Notes: a model not told the origin generated them from the sequence alone. A DNA stretch of 64,000 bases from a virus (IMGVR_UViG_3300017991_000072:1-64000), one strand, 5' to 3'. Positions 2,123-54,693 are shown, counted from the stretch's first letter. Numbers and translations are program-made.

Positions 2123-2130
2123 GGTCTCCC

Positions 2131-3144: not shown

Positions 3145-3153
3145 GATAGCCTC

Positions 3154-6831: not shown

Positions 6832-8938
6832 CGTATCCCACTATGGTCAGCGTGGTGGTGGCGTTTCCTTCGCCATCGTACTGTTTAGACCACCCTTCCA
6901 CCTTGGCGTCATCTCCGTAGTCAATGGGTGGGAAGTCCCTCATGGCGTCCTGGATGGACCCAGTGATCTGGGTCCCCACAGGTACTTCATAGGCTCCCTT
7001 CAAGGTGACCGTGGTCCTGACTTCTATGGAGCCCTGGACCAAGCTGTTGGCCAGGTATTCCGCTATTTCATAGGCGTCATCCCAGTCTACCAATAACCCC
7101 AGGGAGACGGTAGCCATCCCCATGTCCGCGTCCCCTCCAGGAAGGTTCTGGTAGACCTTGATGGGCATGGTCCGCCGCTTGGACCAGGTGACTGGGACCT
7201 CCGCCGCCGGGATCTGGGTCAAGCTGGCCTGGGTCTTGAAGAGCGTGAAGACCTCCGTGTAGGCCCCTGTCTGGCCTGTTCTGTACGGGGGGACCAGATA
7301 CCTGGTGGGGTCCAGCTCTGACCTGTAGGTAGCCCTTTGGGCGTGTCTGTAGGACAGCTCCCTGTAGACATCCTGTTCTAGCCTGATCCTCCATAGGGGC
7401 TTGTCAGGTAGGAGCATGAACGGGACCGCCTCTGTCCTGTCTACGTCCTTCAGGGGGGTGAAGAAGATGGGTCCGCCCTGGTAGTTTGTGGTGAACCCTA
7501 GCTTCCCGTTTTCATCCCTCATGACTTGTTCCGTGAAGACCAGCCCCCATTCCTGGGTGACCACTTCCTGGAGCCGCCCGCCGTAGGTTTCGTCTTCATA
7601 GATGTGTTCTGTCTTCTCCAGGCTTCCTTTGTTCGTCCAGACTCCCGCATAGTTGAACTTCGTCCCTGGATCCACCAAGATGTCATCCGCTGACGTTCCT
7701 TCCGTGGGTATTTCATAGGCCATGGTCCTGGGGAACCCTGACGGAATGTAGAGGGTTTCGTCAGCCGCCGGGGCCGTGTCCGCGCTGAAGTATAGGTAGC
7801 GGAGCCGTTCCGTGTAGGTGGTGGTCAGTAGGGGCCTGTCAAACTCCACGCCCGTGTTCTGGTAGTTATTGACCACGAACTCCACGGACTCCAGCTTGTG
7901 TTTCTCCGGGCTGACGTTCAGCGTGGGCCTTGACGTGTAGACGTTGTATTGTAGGTTCTCCACGTCTCCTATGGAATTTACCGCCAGGGGTTCCCATCTC
8001 TTGTAGACCTCCGTCCACTGATACGTCAGATGGGACACGTCCCCAAAGGGGGTCTTGGCGAATAGCTGATAGACCAGGGTCAACTGGCTGTTGTCAGACG
8101 TGACGGACCACTTCTCTTCCCATCCGCCTGGGCTGGTCACTTGCCAGTATTTCCCGTAGAAGTAGACCTGTTTGGCGGAGGAGGCCCCGCCTTCCCATGG
8201 TCCGTCCCACTCCGTCTCCTTGAACTGTCCTTCTCCGCCCGTGACCTTCAGCTCTGAAGGATAGGCCACAAAGGCCCGCTGACTGGAGATGGTCTCCGCG
8301 TCCGTCAGACTAAGGGACCCTGAAGACGTAGCTGAAGACGCCTTCCCGTAGACGTAGATGGTGTTCCCGTTGACCGTGACCTGGGGGTCCAAGGCTGTCA
8401 GACCTGAAAAGATGTTCTGAAACAGGGGCTCCCCTTCTTGGATCTGGAACTGTTGGACCCAGAAATTGGGGAGGGAATACCAAAGGTTCAGCCCCAGAAC
8501 CTTGGAAAGGGCTGATCTAAGGATGTCCTTCATGGTCCAGCCGCCAACCCCAAAGTCATCCGCCTCCTTCAGGTAGATCTCCGTGTTGTCATCCGTGTCA
8601 TTCTTCATGTCTTCCCAGAACGTCCGTGGGGCTGACACATATAGGTAGTTCTGGGCTGGAGCCTTCAAGATCAGGTTGGACATCCAGTCACGGAAATTCA
8701 CCGTTGTGGATGGTTCGCCTTCTATCCCCTGGCTCTGAAGGTTGACATCTATGACCCGTCCACGGACGCCGTCCAGCGTGGTCTCTTCCCCCGCTTCGTA
8801 GCCCGTGTAGATCCCCTCCAGGTCCAGAGTGATCCGTTCAGACAGGTCTCCTACAGACCTGGCGAAGGTCACGGACTTGACGCGCCCTGACGCCCCTGGG
8901 CTGGCTGAAACTGACTTTTTAGTGTCTATGTATCTCAT
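6824..8938 (-). CDS. Tail tip/hub-like protein
   Basis: 704 aa immediately downstream of tape measure; beta-rich. Confidence 0.55.
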   Translation of the reverse strand: MRYIDTKKSVSASPGASGRVKSVTFARSVGDLSERITLDLEGIYTGYEAGEETTLDGVRGRVIDVNLQSQGIEGEPSTTVNFRDWMSNLILKAPAQNYLYVSAPRTFWEDMKNDTDDNTEIYLKEADDFGVGGWTMKDILRSALSKVLGLNLWYSLPNFWVQQFQIQEGEPLFQNIFSGLTALDPQVTVNGNTIYVYGKASSATSSGSLSLTDAETISSQRAFVAYPSELKVTGGEGQFKETEWDGPWEGGASSAKQVYFYGKYWQVTSPGGWEEKWSVTSDNSQLTLVYQLFAKTPFGDVSHLTYQWTEVYKRWEPLAVNSIGDVENLQYNVYTSRPTLNVSPEKHKLESVEFVVNNYQNTGVEFDRPLLTTTYTERLRYLYFSADTAPAADETLYIPSGFPRTMAYEIPTEGTSADDILVDPGTKFNYAGVWTNKGSLEKTEHIYEDETYGGRLQEVVTQEWGLVFTEQVMRDENGKLGFTTNYQGGPIFFTPLKDVDRTEAVPFMLLPDKPLWRIRLEQDVYRELSYRHAQRATYRSELDPTRYLVPPYRTGQTGAYTEVFTLFKTQASLTQIPAAEVPVTWSKRRTMPIKVYQNLPGGDADMGMATVSLGLLVDWDDAYEIAEYLANSLVQGSIEVRTTVTLKGAYEVPVGTQITGSIQDAMRDFPPIDYGDDAKVEGWSKQYDGEGNATTTLTIVGYDG

Positions 8939-23114: not shown

Positions 23115-24815
23115 CTATGCGAACAAGAAATTCTCCTGGTGGACCTCCACCACAGACCCTACAGGGGGTGTGTTGGCCGCCAGGTTCGCCAACATGGCGC
23201 TGTCACAGTAGTCATCCCTGGCTGACTTTTCATCCGGACAATGACACTTCATCAGGTCTCCCGTATAGCTTTTCTGTAGATCCAACATTTGATGGACAAA
23301 CCGCTTCCATCTCTTGTCCTTCTGGGCCTCCTGGCCCGCCGGGAACTTGAAGCGGCCTGACACTATATCCGTGTGGAGTATCTTGTATCCTTCGCTTTTC
23401 CTTGGAGCCGTCAGGACAACACCTTCAACTTCAACCCTGTCCCCTATCTCCGTGATGAACCGGTCCAATAGAACAGCCCCCAGACCCGTGGCGTCTACAG
23501 AGATCTTCTGAAGGTTGGGGATCTTCAGAAGGTAGTCCACGATGGCCGCGAACTGGATTTCATAGTTATCCCCTTGGATCTCCAGCCAGTCTATGATGGA
23601 CTTGGTGTAGGCTTCAAAGTAGGCGTTCCCTTCGCTGGAGAAGGACTCCACAGCCTGACAGATCGTGGGGTCATCCCAGTCCACTTCCGCTACCGTGACC
23701 ACTGTGGAAGACTGGCCCTTTCCAAAGTCTATCCCCGCCGCCTGGTATAGGTTGGCGTCCGCCTTCCCCAGAAGGGAGTAGCGCCCTGCCTTCACACAGA
23801 CGATAGGAGCGAATAGCTGATCAGGGGTGACGAACTGGCCGCGTTCAAGGACCCATTCACACAGGTAGGACATCCTGAATTCATCGCTGTCCGCCCCGTA
23901 GTGGTCCATCTCCTGTTTGACGAAGTCTCCATAGAGGGAGTTATAGGCCGCCGCCGTCAGCCAGTTGTATTCAAAATGATCCTGTTTTCCGCCCTGAAGC
24001 CTCCGCTCCATGTTGGCCTTGATCATGTGGTGGAATTCACCCTTCTGGGTAGTGGCCGTTCCTACCGCCATGGTGGTTCCCTTTGTGGCCGCTATCATGG
24101 GACGGAGGGACTTCTTGATCTTCCTGGAGGAGATGTCCTGGGCCTCCTCCAGGGCCAGGATGTCATGGGTGGATCCTTCCACCTTGGACTGTTCGCTGGC
24201 CGAACAGGCCCGGATCTCTGATCCGTTGGTCAGCCTGACCGTGTCCCTGTTCCAGGTGTCACATTCAATCCCCAGTTCCTCCAGGATCTCCTTGGCTTCG
24301 TTCGTCTTCAGGTCCTTCATCAGACGCCTGAACTGGATCTGGGCCTGTTCCAGCTTGGGAGCGTAGATCCCCACTGAAATCCCGTTCTTGAAGCCTCTGT
24401 AGCGCCCTTGTTCGTCCGTCAGGTTGAACCGCCAGTCCCGTTCAAACTCCGGGTCATTGGCTATAACAGGAAGAAGGATGGCCATGGCCGCCAAGATGGC
24501 CGCCACCATCTCCGTCTTCCCGCTCTGGCGGGAGAAGAGCGCCGTGACCGTGGCCCCTTCGTGGAGTAGGACAGACTCCACCAGCCTGGCCGCTGGCGTG
24601 ATCTGGTAGGGGTAGAACTGGATCCCAGAGATCATCTGGGCTGTCTGAATGACTACAGACACCAGGTCCTTGGTGGGGACCTTGGCGTCCGCTTCAGACG
24701 TGTAGGGAGTACAGATGGGACACATGGCGTCAGCCGTCTGGCCGCCTGTAGCCCTCTTCCTCCGCGTCCTCCGCTTCTTAGCTGGTTTGACCTGTTCTAC
24801 CTGGATCTGGGACAT
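23115..24815 (-). CDS. terL: Terminase large subunit
   Basis: Walker A SRQSGKT, Walker B LALEEAQD, coupling motif VGT, nuclease motifs GIDFGK, DATGLG, DDYCDS. Confidence 0.95.
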   Translation of the reverse strand: MSQIQVEQVKPAKKRRTRRKRATGGQTADAMCPICTPYTSEADAKVPTKDLVSVVIQTAQMISGIQFYPYQITPAARLVESVLLHEGATVTALFSRQSGKTEMVAAILAAMAILLPVIANDPEFERDWRFNLTDEQGRYRGFKNGISVGIYAPKLEQAQIQFRRLMKDLKTNEAKEILEELGIECDTWNRDTVRLTNGSEIRACSASEQSKVEGSTHDILALEEAQDISSRKIKKSLRPMIAATKGTTMAVGTATTQKGEFHHMIKANMERRLQGGKQDHFEYNWLTAAAYNSLYGDFVKQEMDHYGADSDEFRMSYLCEWVLERGQFVTPDQLFAPIVCVKAGRYSLLGKADANLYQAAGIDFGKGQSSTVVTVAEVDWDDPTICQAVESFSSEGNAYFEAYTKSIIDWLEIQGDNYEIQFAAIVDYLLKIPNLQKISVDATGLGAVLLDRFITEIGDRVEVEGVVLTAPRKSEGYKILHTDIVSGRFKFPAGQEAQKDKRWKRFVHQMLDLQKSYTGDLMKCHCPDEKSARDDYCDSAMLANLAANTPPVGSVVEVHQENFLFA

Positions 24816-37043: not shown

Positions 37044-37162
37044 GCCGGGTTTGTCAAGGGGGTCCGGTTTCGCGTGTGGGATCCGGGGCCATGCTCCCCT
37101 CCCCTACCGTCCCGGACACACTATACTGTAGGCCGCGCCCACGGACGCCCCCACATCTTGGG

Positions 37163-37284
37163 CCTGAAAAAAAGTTCTCCCTGGGTCATTTTTTCTTCAT
37201 TTTTCTCTTGACAAATGGACGGGGATGGTTTAGACTATAGCCATGATGAACGAAGAAACAAACCCCAAACCCCAGGAGGCCAAG
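37163..37284 (+). promoter_or_regulatory. Promoter module 1
   Basis: T-rich tract, TTGACA(37208)-17-TAGACT, ATG 37243, shared leader plus SD. Confidence 0.85.
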
Positions 37285-37536
37285 ATGATCACCCTGACAG
37301 ACGAACAGATAGCCGTAGTGGCGGAAGCGGACAGCGTTCATGACTACGCCTGGTCCTACATCACCATCAGGAAACAGACCGCGTCCTTCCAGCGGGCCTT
37401 CTACCTGGTGGAGACGATGGTTCACAAGGCTGAACACATGGAACTGGCGGAGGACCAGGTGTCAGGGCTCCAGGTGGCCACGGAATGGCTGAAACATGAG
37501 ATCAAGAACGCGGGCCACCCAGTAGCCGGACTGTAG
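37243..37536 (+). CDS. Hypothetical early protein (second start 37285)
   Basis: Promoter module, two in-frame starts. Confidence 0.7.
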   Translation: MMNEETNPKPQEAKMITLTDEQIAVVAEADSVHDYAWSYITIRKQTASFQRAFYLVETMVHKAEHMELAEDQVSGLQVATEWLKHEIKNAGHPVAGL

Positions 37537-37595
37537 AACCCCACGGGCTCCCTGGGGATCACCCAGGGAGCCCAGAACCCCAGAAGGAGGACCCC

Positions 37596-37787
37596 ATGAT
37601 ACGGACGAAGAAAGCCAAGAAGGTTCTGACGAAGAAGGAACAGCGCCACCTGACAGAGTCCAACATACACACCATGGCCGCCATGGAGCGCCAGGTGGCC
37701 TTCCTGAAGACCTACGAAGGGAACCCCACCATCTATCCCTGTTGGGAGTGTAGGGCCATAGCCCGGAAGCTTGGTCTGATGGACTGA
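37596..37787 (+). CDS. Hypothetical protein (CWEC motif)
   Basis: Hairpin, leader and AGGAGG SD. Confidence 0.7.
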   Translation: MIRTKKAKKVLTKKEQRHLTESNIHTMAAMERQVAFLKTYEGNPTIYPCWECRAIARKLGLMD

Positions 37788-37802
37788 CGCCCAGGACCCC
37801 CG

Positions 37803-37931
37803 TGACCCCTGGAGAAAAAAATTCTCCAGGGGTCATTTTTTCTTCATTTTTCTCTTGACTTTTCTGGCTCCCTGGGTTACAATAAGATCATGGAAACACA
37901 GAAAACACCCCAAACCCCCAAGGAGGAGACG
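37803..37931 (+). promoter_or_regulatory. Terminator-promoter module 2
   Basis: TGACCCCTGGAGAA/TTCTCCAGGGGTCA stem, T tract, TTGACT(37855)-17-TACAAT. Confidence 0.9.
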
Positions 37932-38324
37932 ATGAACTGGACCAAAGAAATCAGCCAAGAGGCCGCTGACAAGGTGAAGAAGGCTGGCTACGTGGACCCC
38001 ACAGCCAACCATCACCTGATCTCTGAAGCCGCCGCTGAAGCCCACACGATCCTGGGCCAGGAGATCTTCCTGGCGAAGGACCACGCCTGTGAAGTCAGCG
38101 TCCAGATCCCCAAGACGATCACGGATGAATTCCAGGCCACCTATGACGCCTACAAGCTGATCATGATGGAGATGGAAGCCATCCACCCGGCCAACAAACC
38201 AGAACTGACGCCCCAAGGCTATGACCGCCTGATGGCTGGCCTTCAGGAAAAGGCCGCGCCCCTTCGTTCCAAGCTTTACTCCCTGGAGATGGTCCTGGTG
38301 TCCATCGTCCAGGCCCAGATCTGA
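37890..38324 (+). CDS. Hypothetical early protein (second start 37932)
   Basis: Module 2. Confidence 0.7.
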   Translation: METQKTPQTPKEETMNWTKEISQEAADKVKKAGYVDPTANHHLISEAAAEAHTILGQEIFLAKDHACEVSVQIPKTITDEFQATYDAYKLIMMEMEAIHPANKPELTPQGYDRLMAGLQEKAAPLRSKLYSLEMVLVSIVQAQI

Positions 38325-38391
38325 CGAACCACGGGGGAGGGACCACGGGGGTCCCTCCCCTTCCCCCAACCCCACAGAGGAGGACAAGAAG

Positions 38392-38826
38392 ATGAAAGCC
38401 ACCAAGGACCAGATCAGAGGAATAGTAGGAGTCTTCCAGGACATCCTGGCCAAGGCGGAAGACAAGCTGAACACCAAGGAGATGGAGATGACAGAGCCCT
38501 ACGCCCACTACACTCCCGCCAAGGACGGAGGGACCTACAGGGCTGTCTGTCTGAATGACCTTCCCAGTGAAGCCTTCCAGGCCATGGACTCCGCCACGGA
38601 GGCCGTCTCCCGCGCCAAGATGGTCATCAGGGAAGGACTCCGCTTCTGGGAATTGGGTCAGATCTCTGATGAAGACCTGGTCTTCAAGGCCGCCCAGGCC
38701 AACGTCAACCTGGCCATGGAGGCCGTGGACAAGGCCCTGGAAGCCCCCAACCCCAGGCCCAAGACCAGGCCCAGGCCCATCAAGGCCAGGTTTGGGGAGA
38801 CCAGGCCAGCGTTCCCCGTGTCATAG
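38392..38826 (+). CDS. Hypothetical protein
   Basis: Hairpin, leader and SD. Confidence 0.7.
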   Translation: MKATKDQIRGIVGVFQDILAKAEDKLNTKEMEMTEPYAHYTPAKDGGTYRAVCLNDLPSEAFQAMDSATEAVSRAKMVIREGLRFWELGQISDEDLVFKAAQANVNLAMEAVDKALEAPNPRPKTRPRPIKARFGETRPAFPVS

Positions 38827-38835
38827 TTGACACAG

Positions 38836-38972
38836 CCCCCTGGTGAAAAAAAATTCGCCAGGGGGTCTTTTTTCTTCACTTTTCTCTTGACAAATGGGGG
38901 ACCATGGTTTATAATAGAGCCATGATGAAGGAAGGAAACAAACCCCAAACCCCCCAAAAGGAGGAGGACCTG
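38836..38972 (+). promoter_or_regulatory. Terminator-promoter module 3
   Basis: Stem with a G-U pair, TTGACA(38887)-17-TATAAT. Confidence 0.9.
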
Positions 38973-39383
38973 ATGATGACCCTTCAAGAAGCTACCGCTG
39001 GACTGATCGCTGGAACCGTGACCACGGATGACCTGAAGGTCCAAGGGTTCACGGCTGATGAACTGATCGCTGTGGTGGAGGCCATCCCGCCGTTCACAGG
39101 CTGTCCCTGTTGTTCGGATGAAGAGCCCGGCGCTGACTACGCGGACTTCAACATGTCCCTGTCCCGTCAGTTGGCCTTGGCTGACGTGAAGGTCTGTGGG
39201 TCCTGTGGAGCCATCCACGGAACCGTGGAGACCTGGGAAGCGGCCCACATGGTCTACCACCCCACGATGGTGGCCAAGGCCACGGGGGAGGAGATCTACG
39301 TGGACCTGACGATCCGTTCAGAGAATGAACGGTTCCATGGCTGGATGGACTCCGCCACCAAGAACCTGACCCAGGTTGGCTAG
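38922..39383 (+). CDS. Hypothetical Zn-binding protein (CPCC..CGSC; second start 38973)
   Basis: Module 3. Confidence 0.7.
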   Translation: MMKEGNKPQTPQKEEDLMMTLQEATAGLIAGTVTTDDLKVQGFTADELIAVVEAIPPFTGCPCCSDEEPGADYADFNMSLSRQLALADVKVCGSCGAIHGTVETWEAAHMVYHPTMVAKATGEEIYVDLTIRSENERFHGWMDSATKNLTQVG

Positions 39384-39457
39384 GACCTGGGAGGAAGCCA
39401 GGGAGGGACCCGTGGGTCCCTCCCTTCTTCGTTCAACCCCAAACCCAGGAGGAGACG

Positions 39458-39664
39458 ATGACCAGAGAAGAGGCCCAACGGATGGACCCAGAGGAGGCCA
39501 AGCTGAAGGCCAAGAGACTGGCCCAGGAAGCTGATGAACTGATCTCCAAGATGGAACTGGCCCACCCCCATTCCCAACGCTACACTGAACTGTGGAACGA
39601 ACTGACAGCCGTGGAACAGGAACAGCTAGTTCTGACCTGGGCTCCAGGCTACGGAGCCTGGTGA
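39458..39664 (+). CDS. Hypothetical protein
   Basis: Hairpin, leader and SD. Confidence 0.7.
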   Translation: MTREEAQRMDPEEAKLKAKRLAQEADELISKMELAHPHSQRYTELWNELTAVEQEQLVLTWAPGYGAW

Positions 39665-39722
39665 CGGAATAGAGCCCAGGCCCTACCCCTGGCGAACGAT
39701 CCAGGGGAGGGACCTGGGACGG

Positions 39723-39755
39723 GAGCCCCGGCGTTCAGACCGGGGCTCTTTTTTT
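39723..39755 (+). terminator. Intrinsic terminator
   Basis: GAGCCCCGG..CCGGGGCTC followed by T7. Confidence 0.8.
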
Positions 39756-39859
39756 GTCTGGATCCCCTGGCCTATGCTCCGCCTCCGCACCGTCCCGGAT
39801 GTGGTATTATCCCACCACAATGTCAAGAGAAGAGTGAAAAAAATTTCGTCTGGTGTCAA

Positions 39860-40001
39860 GATTTCTTCATTTTTCTCTTGACTTTTAGGATTGACCTGGG
39901 GTATAATAGGGCCACAGTCAAGATAGTTGACTGGTTGAATTCGGATCTTTGACAACTGAATAACGGACACAGAAACCCCCAAACCCCAAGGAGGGAAACC
40001 C
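39860..40001 (+). promoter_or_regulatory. Promoter module 4 with hairpin and rrn-type boxA in the leader
   Basis: TTGACT(39878)-18-TATAAT; hairpin 39915-39933; GATCTTTGACAACTGAATA at 39944-39962. Confidence 0.75.
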
Positions 40002-40241
40002 ATGGACGTGTTCTCTGTTCTGATCATCGTGGCTGTGGTTCTGACCAAGGTGGAGGCCCTGGAGGACGCCCTGGAGGCTTCTGAAGCGGACTTCTTCCCC
40101 GCCCAGGTCCTTGTGGTCCTGGTGGCCAGGGACGCCCTGGTGGGAGCCCTGGCGGGCTTCCTGGAGACGGGAACGGGGCTCCAGGATCTCCTGGACGCGG
40201 CCCTGGACCTGGATGACGCCCTGGTCAAGCTGGCGAAGTAG
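40002..40241 (+). CDS. Hypothetical Leu/Ala-rich protein
   Basis: Leader and GGAGG SD. Confidence 0.6.
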   Translation: MDVFSVLIIVAVVLTKVEALEDALEASEADFFPAQVLVVLVARDALVGALAGFLETGTGLQDLLDAALDLDDALVKLAK

Positions 40242-40246
40242 AAACA

Positions 40247-40380
40247 GACCCCCAGAGAAAAAAATTCTCTGGGGGTCATTTTTTCTTCATTTTTCCCTTG
40301 ACTTTTAGGAATGGGTGGTTTATAATAGGGTCATGATGAACGAAGGAAACAAACCCCAAACCCCCAAGAAGGAGGAAACC
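40247..40380 (+). promoter_or_regulatory. Terminator-promoter module 5
   Basis: GACCCCCAGAGAA/TTCTCTGGGGGTC; TTGACT(40298)-17-TATAAT. Confidence 0.9.
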
Positions 40381-40638
40381 ATGAACCAGATGACAACGAA
40401 GAAGAACGCGGGAAGAGACATGGTCCGGAAGGTGAAGGCGGAACAGATGTCCTTTGTGACGGAGGACCAGTTGGCCGTTATCGCGGAGGACGATGAAACC
40501 AGGATGACCCCCATCCTTGTCCGCTGTGGGAATGGACGCTTCACGTGTCCCGCCCAGAACGCGGCCTGGTTCATTGACATCATCACCAAGGAAGGGACGG
40601 ACTACGTCAGGGACGCCTCCATCTACTCCAGCTACTAG
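40333..40638 (+). CDS. Hypothetical early protein (second start 40381)
   Basis: Module 5. Confidence 0.7.
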   Translation: MMNEGNKPQTPKKEETMNQMTTKKNAGRDMVRKVKAEQMSFVTEDQLAVIAEDDETRMTPILVRCGNGRFTCPAQNAAWFIDIITKEGTDYVRDASIYSSY

Positions 40639-40652
40639 CCTGAACCCCTCCA

Positions 40653-40786
40653 GCCCCCCAGAGAAAAAAATTCTCTGGGGGGCCTTTTTTCTTCACTTTT
40701 CTCTTGACTTTCTTGACGGGGTGGGCTATAATAAGATCATGGAAACAGCGAACAAACCCCAAACCCCCAAACCCCAGGAGGACAGA
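40653..40786 (+). promoter_or_regulatory. Terminator-promoter module 6
   Basis: Same stem; TTGACT(40704)-17-TATAAT. Confidence 0.9.
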
Positions 40787-41191
40787 ATGTCAGTCACACA
40801 GTTCAGCGCGGAAGCCGTTTCCCAGATGGCCCACAGCATAGCCGCCCACGCCCGTCTTGATGAAGAGTTGGCGGAGATCATCCTGGAGTCCAAGGCGGCC
40901 CACCACGCTGGCCGCGTGGAGTTCAACCTGGACACGGATGACGTTTCCTTCAAGCTGGTCCACTACATGAGGCTGTCCAACCTGGTGGCCTACTCCATCC
41001 AATACCAGGAGCCCATGGTTCCCGTCTACACCATTGATGACTACTACGGGGAACCCCTGGTGGCCAAGGAGCTGGCGGAGGAAATTGACCACTGGATCTA
41101 CAACGTCCAGACCAACGCGGGGACCGCCCTGGTGGACCCGCTCTGGTTTGAACTGTTCCAGGCTGTCAGGGACCACCTGGCCGCGAAGTAG
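40739..41191 (+). CDS. Hypothetical early protein (second start 40787)
   Basis: Module 6. Confidence 0.7.
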   Translation: METANKPQTPKPQEDRMSVTQFSAEAVSQMAHSIAAHARLDEELAEIILESKAAHHAGRVEFNLDTDDVSFKLVHYMRLSNLVAYSIQYQEPMVPVYTIDDYYGEPLVAKELAEEIDHWIYNVQTNAGTALVDPLWFELFQAVRDHLAAK

Positions 41192-41204
41192 CCCACGGCC
41201 TCCA

Positions 41205-41332
41205 GACCCCCAGAGAAAAAAATTCTCTGGGGGTCATTTTTTCTTCATTTTTCTCTTGACTTTTCCCCGGGGATGGGTTACAATAAGATCATGGAAACAG
41301 GAAATCAACCCCAAACCCCGAAGGAGCCCAAG
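41205..41332 (+). promoter_or_regulatory. Terminator-promoter module 7
   Basis: Same stem; TTGACT(41256)-17-TACAAT. Confidence 0.9.
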
Positions 41333-41563
41333 ATGAAGATGAACCCCAACGGATCAGTCAGTTTCAGCTATGAAGAGATCGTGGCGGCGGCGGAAGAGAC
41401 CAAGAAGGCGGAAGCGGCCCGCGCCAACGCGCCCATGATGGCCGTCAGCTATGAAACCCCCGTAGGGACCTTCAAGGACTGGATCAAGGCGGCGGAGCGC
41501 GTGGAGGCTTTGGACATGGACCCCGTGGAGGTCATCAAGGTAGTCAGAACCCCTATCAGCTAA
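41291..41563 (+). CDS. Hypothetical early protein (second start 41333)
   Basis: Module 7. Confidence 0.7.
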   Translation: METGNQPQTPKEPKMKMNPNGSVSFSYEEIVAAAEETKKAEAARANAPMMAVSYETPVGTFKDWIKAAERVEALDMDPVEVIKVVRTPIS

Positions 41564-41630
41564 GGACAGGAACCACGCCCCCCCAGGATCCCCTGGGGGG
41601 CCAACCCCAACCCCAACGAAGGAGGACACG

Positions 41631-42029
41631 ATGAACAGACAAGCCAAGATCCCCCAGGAGATGGCCACCTACCTGGTGGACGCGGAGGACAAAGGCTGGA
41701 CCGGTGGCCAGGTGACCAGGTGGGTCCGGAACTGGATGAAGGACCTAGTCTGGGATGACAAGGACCCCCTGGGGGAGTCCGTGGCCGTGACCGTCCCCTG
41801 TTCCCTGGTGGACCAATACGGGAAGCTGATGGCCAAGGAGGACGAAGTCAGGACCTTGATGGAGACCAGAGCCCAGACCCTTGGCCTGGTGTCCTGTGAC
41901 CCCAGGTCTGAAGAGTACAGGGAGACCAGGAGGAAACACCTGAACCTAGTCAACGCCCTGGACATGGTCAGGGAGTCCAGGAGGAACCTGGAAGACGCCA
42001 TGACCTGGGTCCTGTTGGCCCAACTGTAG
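41631..42029 (+). CDS. Hypothetical protein
   Basis: Hairpin, leader and SD. Confidence 0.7.
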   Translation: MNRQAKIPQEMATYLVDAEDKGWTGGQVTRWVRNWMKDLVWDDKDPLGESVAVTVPCSLVDQYGKLMAKEDEVRTLMETRAQTLGLVSCDPRSEEYRETRRKHLNLVNALDMVRESRRNLEDAMTWVLLAQL

Positions 42030-42080
42030 ACGAACCCAACGCGGCCCCCTGGGGAGACCTGGGGGGCCAAGGAGGACCCC

Positions 42081-42386
42081 ATGGAAGGACAAGAACCCAA
42101 GATGGTCTCCGTCATGGTGGCGGAGAAGCTTCTACAGGATTATGACACGGCCTTGATGGGAGCCAGGAACATGGAGGGACGCCTATTGAACGCTGAACAG
42201 TGTCTTCTCCAGTCCGTCCTGGACTGTGACCAGGAAGCCTATGAAGAGGCCCTGGCCCAGAGGGACAGGGTCCAGGCTTCTCTGGACCTGGCCAAGAACC
42301 AGGCGGCGGCCCTGTCCGTCACGATAGCCAAGAAGGCCCTTCAAGACTGGATGACCCCAGGGACTCCAGTCTTCCCAGAGGATTGA
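42081..42386 (+). CDS. Hypothetical coiled-coil protein
   Basis: Hairpin and AAGGAGG SD. Confidence 0.7.
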   Translation: MEGQEPKMVSVMVAEKLLQDYDTALMGARNMEGRLLNAEQCLLQSVLDCDQEAYEEALAQRDRVQASLDLAKNQAAALSVTIAKKALQDWMTPGTPVFPED

Positions 42387-42387
42387 A

Positions 42388-42446
42388 CCACGGGTCCTCC
42401 CGTGGGTTTGGGGTGGGGCTCCCCCAGGGGTGGGGGAGCCCCTTTC
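42388..42446 (+). ncRNA. 3'-end anti-leader element plus terminator
   Basis: GTCCTCCCGTGGGTTTGGGGT (antisense to shared leader), then GGGGCTCCCCCA/TGGGGGAGCCCC stem and TTT. Confidence 0.55.
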
Positions 42447-42448
42447 TA

Positions 42449-42477
42449 TTGACTTCAGGCGGACCATGGTCTACACT
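42449..42477 (+). promoter_or_regulatory. sigma70 promoter for sRNA-1
   Basis: TTGACT-17-TACACT. Confidence 0.7.
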
Positions 42478-42483
42478 GAAGCC

Positions 42484-42565
42484 TGATCCACAGGGAACGG
42501 CGGGGCTTCCCCGTCCTCCTTGGGGTTTGGGGTAGGGGTCCAGGAGGGGTCCTGGACCCCTCTTT
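42484..42565 (+). ncRNA. Putative anti-leader sRNA-1
   Basis: Own promoter and terminator, no ORF; 42513-42533 is the exact reverse complement of ACCCCAAACCCCAAGGAGGAC. Confidence 0.65.
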
Positions 42566-42615
42566 ATATTGTGGTTCTTCTTGAACAGCTCCCCCACATG
42601 TGGTATGGTGGAACC

Positions 42616-42705
42616 TGCTAGGGCTGACTTGGTGTCCGTACCAGCGCCGGGTCACTCTGTTTCCTCCTTTGGGCTCCCCACGCGCCACGGGGAGCCCTTC
42701 CCTTC
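42616..42705 (+). ncRNA. Putative anti-SD sRNA-2
   Basis: TTGAAC(42581)-17-TATGGT promoter, 10-bp stem with three G-U pairs, GTTTCCTCCTTTGGG, terminator-like stem 42671-42697. Confidence 0.5.
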
Positions 42706-42707
42706 TA

Positions 42708-42723
42708 TGTTCCACGTGAAACC
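42708..42723. promoter_or_regulatory. parS-like site
   Basis: TGTTCCACGTGAAACC, 15/16 match to TGTTNCACGTGAAACA; intergenic. Confidence 0.55.
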
Positions 42724-42863
42724 CTGACTCCCTGGACCCCCGGGCCATGCTCCGGCCGGAGACCGTCCCGGATGTGGTATTCATCCACCACAACGTCAAG
42801 TCCCCACTTGACACGCCCCCCTTCCTCCTCCCCCCTGGTTATGCTCCCCCCAGGAAATCCGGG

Positions 42864-42911
42864 ACACCACATGTGGTATACCCACGGCCACGGACCCCCT
42901 ACATTTTGTGG
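42864..42911. promoter_or_regulatory. Tandem NrdR-box-like operator pair (32 bp apart)
   Basis: ACACCACATGTGGTAT and CCCCTACATTTTGTGG. Confidence 0.5.
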
Positions 42912-42919
42912 TGTCATAT

Positions 42920-43029
42920 AGCGAATTTTTCTACACTGAACCCTTGACAACAGGGGGTCCCCTGGTGTATATTAGGGGTAGATAGTGAGAATGAAACGGA
43001 CCCCAGAACCCCAAACCAAGGAGGACAGG
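42920..43029 (+). promoter_or_regulatory. Promoter module 8 (divergent copy)
   Basis: TTGACA(42944)-18-TATATT with TG; leader and SD. Confidence 0.75.
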
Positions 43030-43416
43030 ATGAACGCAAGAACCAACGATGACTTCAGGAAGGAAGGAACCAGGAAGGCCACGCTGGCGTTCCTTTCCGC
43101 CCTGACAGAACAGGAGGAAAGCGGAGAACCCCCGGCCATGTTCATGATCTGTCAACAGAAGAACCCCATCACGGGACGGAGGAATGAAGTCAGGTTGACG
43201 GCCGGTGTTCAGGCCATGGGAGCCATAGCGGCCGGTCACGTCCTGAAAGCCGTTCATGACTTTGACACCTTCACAGAGGATAATGACCCCTACGGGGAAC
43301 ATGACTTTGGGATCGTCAGGATGGAAGGGGAAACCCTGAACTGGAAGATTGATGACTACCAGGGCTATGATGGGATTGAATTGGTCCTGACCATCATGAC
43401 GGCCATGGAATACTAG
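42991..43416 (+). CDS. DUF3768-like protein (second start 43030)
   Basis: FDTFTEDNDPYGEHDFG, WKIDDY, VLTIMTAMEY signature. Confidence 0.8.
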   Translation: MKRTPEPQTKEDRMNARTNDDFRKEGTRKATLAFLSALTEQEESGEPPAMFMICQQKNPITGRRNEVRLTAGVQAMGAIAAGHVLKAVHDFDTFTEDNDPYGEHDFGIVRMEGETLNWKIDDYQGYDGIELVLTIMTAMEY

Positions 43417-43477
43417 AAACCCCAGGGAGCCCGGCCACGGCCGGGCTCCCACCACCCCCCAAACCAAGGAGGACAGA

Positions 43478-43741
43478 ATGGACCCCATCACGAACCCAAG
43501 ACCCACCACCCACCAATGGAAGGAAGGGGACAGGGTAGCCTTTTCTAAAGCCTTCCTCCGCAACACTGGCCAGTGTGACTATGAAACGGCCAGAGGCCGG
43601 GGGACCATCATCAGCGTGGCCCCCGTGGGGGACCTGACCATAGCGTCTATCAGATGGGACGGGATAGGTCTGGTCACTAACGTCAACGTGTTGAACCTGT
43701 CCCTGGTCACCAGGGACGGGGTAGTTCAGGACAGGGACTAG
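43478..43741 (+). CDS. Small SH3-like beta-barrel hypothetical protein
   Basis: GDRVAFSK.FLR..RGTI..IRWD..NV..NL. Confidence 0.65.
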   Translation: MDPITNPRPTTHQWKEGDRVAFSKAFLRNTGQCDYETARGRGTIISVAPVGDLTIASIRWDGIGLVTNVNVLNLSLVTRDGVVQDRD

Positions 43742-43801
43742 GAAGTCACCAGGGAGCCCTGGCGCTGGCCGGGGCTCCCACCCCCACCCAAGGAGGACAG
43801 G

Positions 43802-44041
43802 ATGGATCTGGAACGCTACAGGGTCTTCACAGCCCAGAAATTCATGGCCATGACCACGGGGGAACGCCAGAGGACAAAGCCCACCATGATGTTCAGCCGG
43901 GAATACCTGGCCCTGGCCCTGGCGCTGGCCTCTGAAAAGGTCATCATCTATGACGCCCAGGAAGACCTGGCGTGGCATTGTGGGGACCTGGTCACGAAGG
44001 CGGGATGGTACGATGGGAGCGGACAGCTAGTCAACCCGTAG
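43802..44041 (+). CDS. Hypothetical protein
   Basis: Hairpin, leader and SD. Confidence 0.65.
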   Translation: MDLERYRVFTAQKFMAMTTGERQRTKPTMMFSREYLALALALASEKVIIYDAQEDLAWHCGDLVTKAGWYDGSGQLVNP

Positions 44042-44267
44042 CCCTTCACCGGGGACCTGGTGAAGGGGTCCCCTTGGTTAGCCGGTCCCGGGGAAACCCG
44101 GGGCCGGTCTTTTTATGCTCCCCTCTGGCCCCGTCCCGGATTGTGGTATACTGTATCCACAATGTCAAGCCCTGGCTTGACGGGCCGTCTGCTAATCCAC
44201 GAAAAGCCGGGACGGCCCCACATGTGGTAGGCCCCGTCCACCACCCCTATATTTTGTGGTGTCCGTG

Positions 44268-44382
44268 GGCGTCTTTTTCTTCACTTTTCTCTTGACAAAA
44301 GGGGAACGCCGGGCGTATAATAGACCTGTAAGCTGAACAAAGGGTTCAGCGAAACCCCAACCCCCAACCAAGGGAGGACAGA
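44268..44382 (+). promoter_or_regulatory. Promoter module 9
   Basis: TTGACA(44292)-18-TATAAT; 5' hairpin GCTGAAC/GTTCAGC in place of an upstream ATG. Confidence 0.85.
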
Positions 44383-44580
44383 ATGTTGGTAGCGTGTTAC
44401 AAGACCAAGAAGGCTTTGAAGGAAGCCGTGGGACAGGCTCTTCTATATGAAGAGACTTCCTTGTTCGGGGAGGAATACCGCCCGGACGGGACGTTCCCAG
44501 TGGTAGGCCCCGGGGCCTATGAGCGTAAATGGTACGCGGAAGTTACCATGAAGGGAGGGAAGATCCACAAGGTCAAGTAG
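44383..44580 (+). CDS. Small phage hypothetical protein
   Basis: YKTKKALKEAVG..ETSLFGEEY..RKWYAEVTM pattern; leader and SD. Confidence 0.75.
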   Translation: MLVACYKTKKALKEAVGQALLYEETSLFGEEYRPDGTFPVVGPGAYERKWYAEVTMKGGKIHKVK

Positions 44581-44639
44581 GAACCTGAACCGGCCCGGGG
44601 CTCCGGCCCCGGGCCATTCTTCCAACCAAGGGAGGAACC

Positions 44640-44924
44640 ATGAACACACAAGAGACCCTAGAATTCACTGGACACCAGATGGCCCGGGCCAATACGGTCC
44701 TGTCAAGCCTTGACGGAGCTGGCCCTATGTCCGTCTGTAAAGCCGCCGCCGTGGCCCAGAAGGCCAACCAAATAGCGGAAAGCCTACCAGCCCTTGACAA
44801 GCTGGCCGGACACCTTGAAAGCCATCCTGATGACCCCGTGGCCCTTCTGGCCGTTCAAGCCTATACCGTGGCCGTGGGCGTCCACCTTGACCTTCTGGAA
44901 CTGACCCTTCAAATGACCCTATAG
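44640..44924 (+). CDS. Hypothetical protein
   Basis: Hairpin, leader and SD. Confidence 0.65.
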   Translation: MNTQETLEFTGHQMARANTVLSSLDGAGPMSVCKAAAVAQKANQIAESLPALDKLAGHLESHPDDPVALLAVQAYTVAVGVHLDLLELTLQMTL

Positions 44925-45185
44925 CCTCCCCCCAGGGGGGAGGAATTCCCCCTTGGTTGGCCCCGGTCCCTTCTGGGACCGGGGCCTTTCTTTTGTCAAC
45001 CCCAGACTTGACATAGTGGTGTGCAAATGTCATTTTCCGTCCCGGACGTTGACCGTTTCCCAGGGCTCCCAGAGCGGAGCGGAGCGGAGCGGGTCCCCGT
45101 AGGGGACCACGGCCCCCGTCCCATCCGGGACGGGGGCCGGGAACCGCATAGAGAGAAGAGACCGGAACCGGACCCGGCCGGACCC

Positions 45186-45311
45186 ACCTGAAAAAAAATT
45201 CGCGGGAGGACGTTTTTTCTTCACTTTTCCCTTGACTTTCGTTCTGGGATGGTTTAGAATAGGGGTGTAATGAGGAAACGAAACACACCCCAAACCCCGA
45301 AGGAGGCCAAG
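45186..45311 (+). promoter_or_regulatory. Promoter module 10
   Basis: TTGACT(45232)-17-TAGAAT. Confidence 0.85.
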
Positions 45312-46226
45312 ATGGCAACACAGAGCGGACAGGACAAGGTTTTCCAGATCTTCACAGACCAGATCATGGACATGTTGGAAGAGGGGACGGTCCCCTGGCG
45401 TCAACCTTGGAAGGGCGGGAAGATCCCCATGTCCTTCCAGACCAAGCGGCCCTACCGTGGGATGAACGTCTGGTTCCTGAACAGCGTGGCCATTCATCGC
45501 GGCTACACATCCAACTGGTGGGTGTCCCTGAAGTCAGTGAAGAAGGCCAAGGGCTGGATCAAGGACGATGAATTCAAGAAGTCAGTGACCGTGATCTTCT
45601 GTAGGCCCAAGCGGTACGAAGTGGAGACGGACGAAGTGGACGAACAGGGCCAGCCGGTCAAGGAAGAGCGGATGTCCTTCATCTACTTCTACCACACGGT
45701 ATGGAACATGGACCAGGTGGAAGGGATGACGGCCCCTGACGCGGACCAGGACGCGGAGGAGCGGACCCCCAACCAGATCCTTGAAGAGGCCCAGGCCATC
45801 ATTGACGGCTACCAGAACGGCCCAGAGATCAGCCACGGCGGGACCAGGGCTTTCTATCGTCCCTCTGATGACTCCGTGACGGTCCCAGAGATGGAACTGT
45901 TCCAGGACAGCGAGAACTACTACCACGTGATGTATCATGAACTGGCACACTCCACGGGTCACGGTTCCCGCCTTGGGCGGAAGGGAGTCATGGACCTGAC
46001 CATGTTTGGATCCCATGACTACTCCAAGGAGGAACTGGTGGCGGAGATGGGAGCGGGCTTCCTGGGAGCCCTGGTGGGACTGACCCCCAGGACCATTGAC
46101 AACACGGCGGCCTACATCCAGTCCTGGCTGAAGGCCCTGAACGATGACAAGCGGCTCCTGGTCTACGCGGCCAGCAAAGGCCAGGCGGCGGCGGAACACA
46201 TCCTGGGCGTGACCTGGGAAGGATAA
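45270..46226 (+). CDS. ardC: ArdC-like ssDNA-binding anti-restriction protein (DUF1738 plus zincin-like domain; second start 45312)
   Basis: PWRQPW, RPYRGMN, VWN.DQ.EG, AFYRPS.D, HELAHSTGH..RL.R, YSKEELVAE, AAYIQSWL. Confidence 0.9.
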   Translation: MRKRNTPQTPKEAKMATQSGQDKVFQIFTDQIMDMLEEGTVPWRQPWKGGKIPMSFQTKRPYRGMNVWFLNSVAIHRGYTSNWWVSLKSVKKAKGWIKDDEFKKSVTVIFCRPKRYEVETDEVDEQGQPVKEERMSFIYFYHTVWNMDQVEGMTAPDADQDAEERTPNQILEEAQAIIDGYQNGPEISHGGTRAFYRPSDDSVTVPEMELFQDSENYYHVMYHELAHSTGHGSRLGRKGVMDLTMFGSHDYSKEELVAEMGAGFLGALVGLTPRTIDNTAAYIQSWLKALNDDKRLLVYAASKGQAAAEHILGVTWEG

Positions 46227-46301
46227 CAGGGAGGAAGCCTGGGAGTCCCACAGTGGGGCTCCCAGGCCCTTCAAACCCCAAACCAGAAGGAGGACAGAAC
46301 G

Positions 46302-46775
46302 ATGGAACAGACAGACTACACAGCGGACAGAGAACTGGCGGTCAAGGCCCTGGAACAGATGGACTACATCCACCTGGAACGCGGACAGGTGGCGGCCCTG
46401 GTGGACACCTACCGGGTCATCACCACCCATAACCCTGGCGCGGTCCCAGGCCATGAAGAGGAACTAGGGACCCTGGCCGGGCTCCTGGTCATGAGCGTAG
46501 GAACTGGCGTCAAGCTGATCCCAGAGGACGGACCCCCCAACGTCCGGGTGGGAGTCCCCAGGCTCCTGGTGGAAGCCATCAAGGACATCAACATCCAGAG
46601 GGACAAACTGGCGGCCTACAAGGAGGAACACAAGGACGGAGGAGGACCAATAGACCCCAAGTCCATGGAAGTCCTGGAGGCCCAACAGGCTACCCACAGG
46701 GCGGCCCTTTCCACGGCCCTGGTCAACGTCATCATCACGGACTTGGCTGGAATGGCGGACGCTGGAAGCTACTAG
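46302..46775 (+). CDS. Hypothetical protein
   Basis: Hairpin, leader and SD; terminator at about 46793-46832. Confidence 0.7.
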   Translation: MEQTDYTADRELAVKALEQMDYIHLERGQVAALVDTYRVITTHNPGAVPGHEEELGTLAGLLVMSVGTGVKLIPEDGPPNVRVGVPRLLVEAIKDINIQRDKLAAYKEEHKDGGGPIDPKSMEVLEAQQATHRAALSTALVNVIITDLAGMADAGSY

Positions 46776-46916
46776 ACTGACCCTCCCCCACAGAGCCCCG
46801 GCCCGGTTCGTCCGGTCCGGGGCTCTTCTTTTATGCGGGCCGGGACTAGCGTCCCGGATATACGCCATTTCCCACGGTCCCCATCACGTGGTAGACTATG
46901 GATGAAAGGAGATCCC

Positions 46917-47219
46917 ATGACCTACACTCTATCCCAGGCGGGGACGGCCTACGCTGAAGCGGCGGCCACGTGGGCCAGGGCTATGGAAGCGGAGGAGGCG
47001 GTCAGACAAGAAGGCCCTGACCTGAAGGTTGACAAGTTCCTCCACGTGACGGCCTTGTCCACAGTGATCCGCCAGGCTATGAACGGCCTGTCCCAGGCTG
47101 TCATGATCTTCATCTGGCGAAACAACGAAGGGAACCACGCGGTCCTGGAAGCGGCCATGGCGGAGACTATCCGCGTGACGGCGGACGCCAACGCCCTTAT
47201 GGACTCCTACGGATACTGA
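46917..47219 (+). CDS. Hypothetical Ala-rich protein
   Basis: AAGGAG SD; TGG-TAGACT extended -10 upstream. Confidence 0.6.
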   Translation: MTYTLSQAGTAYAEAAATWARAMEAEEAVRQEGPDLKVDKFLHVTALSTVIRQAMNGLSQAVMIFIWRNNEGNHAVLEAAMAETIRVTADANALMDSYGY

Positions 47220-52974: not shown

Positions 52975-54693
52975 CTACTCCCAGAACGATTGAAGGTCAA
53001 CTTCATCCTGTGGCTCCTGTTCCTGTGGGGTAGCTGTCTTCAGATCCGTCAGCCCATCGTTCCCATCACTACCGTCCGTCAAGTCTTCATTGTCAAGTGA
53101 AGAATGTTCTTGGTCACCTTGGTCACTCACCAGTCCTCCAGAGGTCATTTCAGAGCCAGCGCCAAGATGTGAACGGTATGAGTCTTCGTGAAGTCTCCGT
53201 GAAGCCTCCTGGGGAGACATCCCTGGAAGGACTGACATGGAAGGTAGGAGGCCCCGCTTGGCCTTCTCTATCAGGACGGCCACCTGGCCGGTCCCATCTG
53301 ATAGGGTCAGGCTCCTCTTGACTTCCCCGCTGTCAGGGTCCAACAATTTCACCAGGTCCTTCAGCCTTTTGTGGACTTCCCCTACTAGAATGTCTGTTCT
53401 CTCTTCTGGAACCCCAGTGATAGCCTCCCTCAATAGGGCTTCTTCTATCCTGGCCAGATCCTTGGTAGCCAGGCCAGCCATGGCGGCCAGGGCGTCAAGG
53501 TGTGAGCCTATGACATGTCTGTCCAGTAGCCCCTGGTGTTTACAGTCATGGCCCTGGTCATAGTCTGGACACTTCCCCTTCAGAGGACACCTGTCACAGG
53601 TACGCTTCACAGCCCCACCAAATAGGCCACCCTCCAGTTGGATAGGCCCCATCTGTGTCCCTGGTGACCCACAGGTTCCGATAATATCAGTTATGTTAAC
53701 TTTTCCAGGGACCCCTGACCCCACAGGGACCCCTTCCTGACCCCCTTCTGTCAAGGTCCCACATGACAGGGGGTCCCCAGGAGCCCCCTGGCTATGCTCT
53801 TCTCCATCTCCGTCCCGGATCTCGCTTATATCTAGCCCATTCGTCAAGTTATTACTTGACAAAGTCTCCTTCACAACATCTTGTGGCGCTCCATCTTGTG
53901 GTACATTCCCTTGTGGTACTACATCTTGTGGCCCTAGATCTTGTGGCCCCTCTGCTAATCGTCGAAGATCCGGGACGGGAGAATGCGGCGGGACAGGAGA
54001 AACAGCCCCAATATCTTGTAGCACTACATCTTGTGGTACTACATCTGGCCCCCTACCGCTTGTACCACTAGATCTTGTACTACTAGATGTGGTGGCGTCC
54101 AGAAAACGCTCCAAGAGGGACCGGCGGACAGGAGGCCCTTGGGGTTCTTCCTTATTGACCCCTGTTTTCACCTGGGGTCCTTCCTCTGTAGGGTCCAATG
54201 TATCCCTGGCTTTCCCCTTTGTATTCTGGGGAACTTCCTTCTCTGTGTTCTGTTCTTCCGCTTTGGCTGACCCTCCACCCCGCGCCCTGGGTTTCCCCGT
54301 TCCCTGTTCTTGTCTGGACTCCAGTTCCTCCATCCCCTTCTTGGCTCTGTCCAATGGATCGTCTGACTGGTCTTCCTTGTAGCCTGTCAGGGCCTTCATC
54401 ATAGCTGTAGCCATGTCTGGACCCTTGGCTGGACCCTTCCCCGCCGCCTGGGGTTCCCCCTTCTCCGCCTTCTGACCCTGTACTGTGGGGACCTTCAGGA
54501 GCCTCTTCTTCTTGGCTCCCCCCTTTGTCCGCCGTGAAGTCCCATTTTCTGGGGTCTTTCCGCTGAAATCTTCGTTTTTGGGTGGGGGTGTTTCCGCTTT
54601 CAGCTTTCTTTTCTTGACAACAGGGGGTTCCCCACGCCCTGTCTTTTCCGCTGAATTCCGCTTCTTGGCCATGGTGGCCTCCTTCCTTGACAT
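52975..54693 (-). CDS. Large protein: disordered K-rich N-terminus, PQDVV repeats, C-terminal CxxC..C..C and helical domain
   Basis: 572-codon ORF; SD before MAKKRN at 54672; function unknown. Confidence 0.6.
   Translation of the reverse strand: MSRKEATMAKKRNSAEKTGRGEPPVVKKRKLKAETPPPKNEDFSGKTPENGTSRRTKGGAKKKRLLKVPTVQGQKAEKGEPQAAGKGPAKGPDMATAMMKALTGYKEDQSDDPLDRAKKGMEELESRQEQGTGKPRARGGGSAKAEEQNTEKEVPQNTKGKARDTLDPTEEGPQVKTGVNKEEPQGPPVRRSLLERFLDATTSSSTRSSGTSGRGPDVVPQDVVLQDIGAVSPVPPHSPVPDLRRLAEGPQDLGPQDVVPQGNVPQDGAPQDVVKETLSSNNLTNGLDISEIRDGDGEEHSQGAPGDPLSCGTLTEGGQEGVPVGSGVPGKVNITDIIGTCGSPGTQMGPIQLEGGLFGGAVKRTCDRCPLKGKCPDYDQGHDCKHQGLLDRHVIGSHLDALAAMAGLATKDLARIEEALLREAITGVPEERTDILVGEVHKRLKDLVKLLDPDSGEVKRSLTLSDGTGQVAVLIEKAKRGLLPSMSVLPGMSPQEASRRLHEDSYRSHLGAGSEMTSGGLVSDQGDQEHSSLDNEDLTDGSDGNDGLTDLKTATPQEQEPQDEVDLQSFWE
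53871..54095. repeat. Two clusters (5+6) of 15-bp-period repeats, consensus ACTACATCTTGTGG
   Basis: Units start at about 53871, 53886, 53901, 53916, 53931 and 54006, 54021, 54036, 54050, 54065, 54080. Confidence 0.9.

Follow-up and report, generated by a model that had tools for sequence, protein, structure and literature searches.

The 64-kb window analyzed here is the first part of a 99,864-bp IMG/VR virus record that is 100% complete according to CheckV, and its source is an uncultured tailed phage of ~100 kb from sediment. The genes for the portal, the large terminase, and the tape-measure protein are situated at 8.9–24.8 kb. The plus-strand early region at 37–52.7 kb contains ~14 sigma-70-type promoters, and the genes for PolA, a DnaB-like helicase, RecA, and a ResIII helicase are found at 84–97 kb. 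Because the promoters of the phage are of the sigma-70 type, the host is a bacterium. A search with TerL against 185,579 species genomes gave no match, and a search of a protein atlas returned viral clusters only. No tRNA genes were detected in the 64-kb window. The public runs that contain the locus are sediment and seawater metagenomes, and no RNA run is listed among them.

Eleven phased repeats inside a coding sequence had been noticed in a preliminary description of this DNA, and their presence was confirmed. They are arranged as five plus six units in two blocks that together cover 225 bp of a conserved phage ORF (Table 1). Tandem Repeats Finder reports two 15-bp arrays, one at 53872–53947 (5.1 copies) and one at 54013–54085 (4.9 copies), and a separate repeat search gave the same phasing. 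When the units are read as 16-mers with a 1-nt overlap between neighbours, they start at positions 53871, 53886, 53901, 53916, and 53931 in block A and at positions 54006, 54021, 54036, 54050, 54065, and 54080 in block B. The 1-nt register shift described earlier is found between the units at 54036 and 54050, which are 14 nt apart; the box frame changes from P-Q-D-V-V to T-x-S-x-G at this step. The 99,864-bp genome has six copies of the nine-base core ATCTTGTGG, five of them within the array, against a Markov expectation of 1.1. Identical contigs are present in the runs of two other studies, so the array is not an assembly artefact.

The array is 600–800 bp inside an ORF that encodes a protein of 572 amino acids. 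A basic N-terminal segment and a Cys4-plus-helical C-terminal domain (approximately residues 330–572) are conserved in this protein, and the middle, which carries the array, is variable and of low complexity. Neither the ORF nor its neighbours have a Pfam or PHROG match, the remote HMMER matches (P0006–P0013) are without informative domains, and an AF2 model of the C-terminal domain has a pLDDT of 46.8 and is unusable. The protein does not match the Pfam Pentapeptide family, and the repeat peptide varies by frame and by strand among relatives. Searches for relatives of the ORF in IMG/VR and among GenBank phages gave none.

Table 1. Positions of the array, its surroundings, and related elements of the phage genome
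Feature	Position	Strand	Description
TerL	23115–24815		29 kb from array
Single box	37148–37163		12.0 bits; same module type, upstream of early promoter at 37208
Box pair	42559–42606		10.3 + 14.2 bits, 16-bp spacer
Box pair	42864–42911		16.9 + 13.4 bits, 16-bp spacer
Box pair	44215–44259		12.2 + 13.5 bits, 13-bp spacer; upstream of early promoter 44292–44320 (+)
ORF carrying the array	52975–54693	-	572 aa; all units inside
Inverted repeat, left arm	53810–53822	+	CCGTCCCGGATCT, perfect 13 bp, flanks block A
Hairpin-type inverted repeat	53840–53863		GTCAAG-N6-CTTGAC, fixed offset from left arm
Block A	53871–53946		five contiguous 16-bp NrdR-type boxes, 15-bp period
Inverted repeat, right arm	53966–53978	-	AGATCCGGGACGG on plus strand, 13 bp
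Block B	54006–54095		six boxes, one 14-nt step
NrdD-like ORF	G000 97138–97395 (= L125:1372–1629)	-	85 aa, beside ResIII helicase

To judge the units as NrdR boxes, criteria were taken from measured binding data (PMC13584703) instead of the old consensus. The data set comprises ten natural boxes from E. coli and S. coelicolor as well as a logo-based synthetic box, ACACAACATCTAGTGG. In these experiments C4 and G13 are essential and must be spaced by 8 bp, A6 and T11 have an influence, positions 3, 5, 7, 10, and 14 are free, and the central AT is dispensable provided that A/T makes up at least 63% of the interior (PMC13584703). C4, T11, and G13 are present in all eleven units of the array, with C4 and G13 8 bp apart. 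A6 is found in nine units (the exceptions carry one C and one T), and nine also have the central AT. Between C4 and G13, 5 to 7 of the 8 positions are A/T in ten of the units, and the unit at 54050 has 4 of 8. Eight units contain everything required by the mutagenesis in PMC13584703, and three are degenerate. In block A the boxes at 53871, 53916, and 53931 are complete, and those at 53886 (C6) and 53901 (T6, CC centre) are degenerate. Five of the six boxes in block B are complete; the one at 54050 is weak (50% A/T). The consensus of the units agrees with ACACAACATCTAGTGG at 12 of 16 positions, or at 14 if the two A/T (w) positions are counted, and units such as TCACAACATCTTGTGG and GTACTACATCTTGTGG are nearly equal to the synthetic box and to natural boxes, for example E. 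coli nrdEF box 2.

The enrichment of such boxes in the array is pronounced. Under a strict rule (C4, A6, T11, and G13, with at least 5 of 8 A/T inside), the genome contains nine matching 16-mers, eight of which are the phased boxes, where 0.3 would be expected (Poisson P = 4e-11). A symmetrised position weight matrix (PWM) derived from the ten natural boxes scores these boxes at 11.4–19.5 bits and places seven of the units at 14.4–16.8 bits, inside the natural range. At 14 bits or above there are 11 matches in the genome, including 7 in the array, compared with 0.5 expected genome-wide. The matrix of the array and that of the natural boxes show a correlation of 0.72, and when column shuffles were compared over all offsets and both strands, none of 3000 reached this value (maximum 0.63). 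The preliminary description had noted that most units keep C4, A6, A8, T9, T11, and G13 of the NrdR box, and the likeness turns out to be better than the old consensus implied. The units deviate from that consensus at positions 7 and 10, both of which are experimentally free. Judged by their sequence, the units are near-consensus NrdR-type boxes when set against boxes with measured binding.

It had also been proposed that the constraint on the array is on DNA, and this is borne out by the use of two reading frames, by rare codons, and by a strand flip in relatives. Within the one gene, boxes are read in a PQDVV-type and in a TxSxG-type frame. On the coding (minus) strand, block A specifies PQD-type pentapeptides, and block B specifies PDVV/PQDVV/LQDIG in one frame and TSSST/RSSGT in the other. 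Codon usage in the array differs from that of the whole genome. CAA accounts for 7 of 7 Gln codons in the array versus 18% genome-wide (P = 7e-6), GAT for 8 of 9 versus 24%, and GTA for 6 of 12 versus 9%. These rare codons provide the box positions A6, T9, and T11/A12.

Homologues of the protein are encoded at four loci in JGI metagenomes, with identities of 81% (L002, to which L004 is nearly identical), 61%, and 48%. The gene copy at L004:1524–3195 has a frameshift just past the array and a stop after 285 residues; this copy may have arisen in assembly or may be a genuine truncated allele. Relatives down to 48% amino acid identity keep five to seven boxes at the position of the array, and the copy number varies among them. 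In L002, L004, and L003, the downstream block, beside the LSSNNL codons, contains the same motif on the opposite strand, with three boxes encoding xSCGT versus five encoding PQDxx, and a stretch of 22 nt is identical in reverse complement. A simple inversion between the 13-bp inverted repeats was considered and is ruled out by the unchanged orientation of the flanking LSSNNL codons. Contigs from two other studies contain matching joints between opposite strands, and the version of the array present in the window is unchanged in two other studies. In the orthologous boxes of block B, the six NrdR-critical positions are changed in 3 of 72 comparisons versus 17 of 120 at the remaining positions (Fisher P = 0.03). 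In L005, the most distant relative, five boxes are kept, whereas the inverted repeat arm beside them and the hairpin are gone. Synonymous identity in a sliding window is mildly raised over the array, which is not decisive. The reading frames, the codon usage, and the comparison with relatives indicate that the array is maintained by selection on DNA rather than on peptide.

NrdR needs two boxes (PMC13584703), and binding occurs with spacers of 14–17 bp and 24–27 bp (PMC12051234). With a 14-bp spacer the KD values are 2 nM for the Listeria protein, 169 nM for that of E. coli, and 154 nM for that of S. coelicolor, and with a 13-bp spacer they are 117 nM for E. coli and 158 nM for S. coelicolor (PMC12051234). 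A spacer of 14 bp is at the lower edge of the range, where the proteins of E. coli and S. coelicolor bind 2–3 times more weakly (PMC12051234), and T. maritima nrdJ has three boxes separated by 14-bp linkers (PMC13584703). Adjacent boxes in the phage array abut with a 1-bp overlap. Boxes n and n+2 are separated by 14 bp, or by 13 bp across the register shift, so box pairs should be usable, at the lower edge of the range. The abutting layout itself is without a known example among bacterial operators.

Outside the array there are 18 PWM matches of at least 10 bits, where 8.9 ± 3.0 are expected. They include three box pairs that are 29–32 bp apart from start to start (42559/42591, 42864/42896, and 44215/44244), and no such pairs appeared in 200 Markov shuffles. 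Two of the three have the canonical 16-bp spacer. Two pairs, 42864/42896 and 44215/44244, are situated ~33 bp upstream of the -35 element of an early promoter; for the former the distance is 33 bp and the promoter is at 42944–42973 (+). Equivalent box pairs are present in L005 at a syntenic position.

The boxes are part of a composite module that is found upstream of early promoters (window positions 37067–46950) and once inside an ORF (53770–53980). The module starts with a CTGG-YY-ATGCTC element, followed by CCGTCCCGGA and, 32–33 bp later, by the GTCAAG-N6-CTTGAC hairpin. Next come an inverted arm, CTGCTAATC...CCGGGACGG, and then the boxes. The hairpin-type repeat beside the array is also present in the modules at 42796 and 44165. 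The octamer GTCCCGGA has ten copies in the genome, which occur only beside the array and in the early region at 37–47 kb. Downstream of the array, at ~54154, there is a decayed promoter-like stretch (TTGACC...CTGGGG). The parts of the module other than the boxes may bind a phage protein.

The preliminary description saw no ribonucleotide reductase (RNR) gene in the window. This holds for the whole 99.8-kb record, with the exception of a 38-residue C-terminal piece of NrdD. The record lacks an ATP-cone, NrdR, a class I/II large subunit, and a small subunit; there is no match to PF02867 or PF00268, and the sole PF13597 match is the 38-residue piece, located 43 kb from the array. This match falls in the NrdD-like ORF, the first ~40 residues of which align with the final 38 positions of Pfam NRDD at 43.6 bits; the aligned part contains the glycyl-radical loop RVVGYYRP. 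The ORF is a stand-alone NrdD C-terminal piece and may serve as a spare-part radical domain for the anaerobic RNR of the host. Together with the absence of an RNR, this piece points to a host that has a class III RNR and to a phage reliant on host dNTP synthesis. NrdR is present in 77% of bacterial genomes (PMC13584703). The array is not at the promoter of an RNR operon or of nrdR; it is inside the ORF at 52975–54693.

When 185,579 bacterial species genomes were searched with a stringent triple-box pattern, no true case emerged; all four matches were unrelated simple repeats. With a looser pattern, ~27 convincing contiguous triple arrays were identified in IMG/VR contigs. Those at L007, L015, L021, L022, L026, L028, L033, L047, L055, L061, L062, L068, L077, L079, L085, L091, L094, L096, L097, L105, L109, L113, L117, L120, and L121 have three contiguous 15-bp-phased NrdR-type boxes and are mostly on marine contigs. 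The triple arrays are mostly intergenic, ~300–400 bp upstream of a gene for the large terminase or for a zeta-toxin/AAA_33 kinase-like protein, and they are often at most a few hundred base pairs from a contig end. There is no RNR gene among the scanned ORFs that neighbour them. Since abutting triples are found in phages and not in bacteria, the layout is a phage feature, and it looks recurrent among phages. A layout that is restricted to phages fits a use beyond ordinary promoter repression, but would be equally compatible with another protein as the binder. Triple 15-bp-phased box-like arrays were also seen inside ORFs of unrelated viral contigs, at L035:7142–7187 (ORF 6903–7949, minus strand, DUF5764), L088:2650–2695 (ORF 2202–3986, plus strand), and L067:2323–2368 (ORF 1647–3668, plus strand). 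These may be further boxes written in frame.

NrdR operators have been described for E. coli nrdAB, nrdHIEF, and nrdDG and for S. coelicolor nrdAB and nrdRJ (PMC13584703, PMC12051234, PMC9110341). Like the array, they are built from a 16-bp partly palindromic box with C4, A6, A8-T9, T11, G13, and an A/T-rich interior. Their spacing also has a parallel in the phage, where pairs with the canonical 16-bp spacer are located at early promoters and the 14-bp spacer between boxes n and n+2 is in the bound range, at its lower edge. The bacterial operators consist of two or three boxes at RNR promoters, whereas the array has eleven contiguous abutting boxes in a coding sequence, in a genome without an RNR gene. 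A literature search found no paper describing NrdR boxes used in phages in the manner of the array.

Two other systems provide a comparison. The iterons of the lambda origin are situated inside gene O, bind the product of that gene, adjoin an A/T-rich region, and are within the replication module. Both the lambda origin and the array consist of repeated, partly symmetric sites of a protein-binding type, placed in frame in the flexible linker of a phage gene. In contrast to the lambda iterons, the units of the array match the site of a host repressor, an A/T-rich region is missing, and the replication genes lie at a distance. The E. coli datA locus is a chromosomal cluster of DnaA sites that acts on the cell's own initiator. 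The proposed role of both clusters is to reduce the amount of free regulator and not to control an adjacent gene, but the phage array would be a sink of viral origin that takes up a host repressor and multiplies as the genome replicates.

The interpretation starts from direct observations: the boxes are of good quality, they are under selection at the DNA level and are conserved in relatives, canonical pairs occur at other places in the genome, and the phage encodes neither RNR nor NrdR. On balance, and with some reserve, we favour the explanation that the units are bound by NrdR of the host and form a candidate operator array encoded within the disordered central region of a phage protein. 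In this way the phage probably takes hold of host NrdR or exploits it. The host NrdR tetramer, loaded with ATP/dATP, would bind pairs of boxes two units apart, and one copy of the genome could hold approximately four or five tetramers on alternating helix faces. Replicating phage DNA would then soak up NrdR. Such a sink would lift repression both from the nrd operons of the host and from NrdR-gated promoters of the phage itself at the time that dNTPs are needed. Because the phage lacks RNR and NrdR and has box pairs at early promoters, the soaking up of NrdR is the most likely consequence of binding. NrdR as the binder, its possession by the host, and titration as the effect are the three steps that we infer.

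In its full form, as a viral DNA sponge in which hundreds of copies of the eleven-box array titrate NrdR and thereby switch on host RNR operons, the proposal is a tentative one that we hold at well under even confidence. Since NrdR dissociates from DNA unaided at falling dATP, it is not obvious what a sink would gain the phage. If the sponge were real, the stand-alone NrdD piece could keep the anaerobic RNR of the host working, and contiguous box arrays would be a phage-specific device, used by several phage lineages and absent from bacterial genomes. Bare DNA sites that act as a repressor sink would also be a new way for viruses to take over host functions.

Binding by NrdR could instead serve a cis-acting switch that responds to the dNTP state. 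With the boxes occupied at high dATP, transcription through the gene would be blocked, an antisense transcript controlled, or the DNA bent for another process, and this would tie the 572-residue protein's gene or the neighbouring convergent junction to the dNTP state of the cell. The canonical box pairs at early promoters do look regulatory, the module of the array is common to promoter regions (the decayed promoter-like stretch at ~54154 included), and NrdR bends DNA sharply at each box (PMC13584703). A single pair would suffice for a switch, however, and eleven boxes in two blocks are excessive. The array is also deep inside the ORF, and a promoter scan of both strands found no promoter-like site in or beside it. 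We regard the switch as conceivable but rather doubtful. The computation presented here cannot separate a decoy function from a switch of this kind; given NrdR binding, we have a slight preference for the sink. In either case, binding by NrdR would mean that a virus manipulates or reads the dNTP sensor of its host through DNA alone.

The preliminary description offered iterons and a packaging site as alternatives to NrdR boxes, and both are disfavoured by the present analysis. As iterons, the repeats would bind a phage protein, possibly the 572-residue protein itself, at an origin, a partition site, or an architectural site, and the likeness to NrdR boxes would be convergent. This would suit repeats located in the linker of a gene with a Cys4 domain and a basic N terminus and flanked by a perfect 13-bp inverted repeat and a hairpin. 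It would also suit a contiguous 15-bp phasing that is found in phages only and is not known from bacterial NrdR operators, and it would make room for the other module elements, which are otherwise unexplained. Yet the match to the NrdR box is too good for chance, as no column shuffle attained it, and substitutions spare the critical positions. The same boxes are paired at the canonical 16-bp spacer by promoters, the inverted repeat and hairpin are lost in L005 where the boxes are kept, there is no A/T-rich unwinding stretch (none beyond ~20 bp, at a GC content of 0.56–0.57), and the genes for PolA, the DnaB-like helicase, and RecA are more than 30 kb away. We therefore consider iterons unlikely. 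Still less can be said for repeats that are functionless as DNA, in which a pentapeptide repeat in a disordered linker has grown by slippage. The 15-bp period does equal five codons, the region is of low complexity, and the copy number differs between relatives, but the peptide varies while the DNA motif is kept in two frames and on two strands, strongly disfavoured codons are used, critical positions are spared, and the repeat matches an independently defined operator. The strand flip comes close to excluding a pure peptide repeat, and we think this origin highly improbable. Lowest in our estimate is a pac or cos-type packaging site. Other IMG/VR contigs have triple boxes ~400 bp upstream of the large terminase gene, often near contig ends, but here TerL and the portal gene are 29 kb from the array, and contigs of several runs span the array with no pile-up of ends, although contigs are poor at showing ends.

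The known role of NrdR is that of an RNR-specific repressor with sites at nrd promoters. At this locus, near-consensus sites form a contiguous array that is encoded by rare codons in a gene of a phage without an RNR and is rewritten onto the other strand in close relatives, where the units are still NrdR-type boxes. The locus is a clear example of a protein-binding DNA code that overrides codon choice and peptide identity. A test of NrdR binding is straightforward, since a reporter assay is available and NrdR from both E. coli and S. coelicolor recognizes heterologous boxes.

Two further observations concern the genome as a whole and its early region. TGT makes up 92% of the Cys codons in a genome with a GC content of 57%, which may reflect the avoidance of a restriction site. 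The early gene at 45270–46226 (+) has an ArdC-like look, with a HELAH zincin motif after the N-terminal region, which suggests an anti-restriction function.
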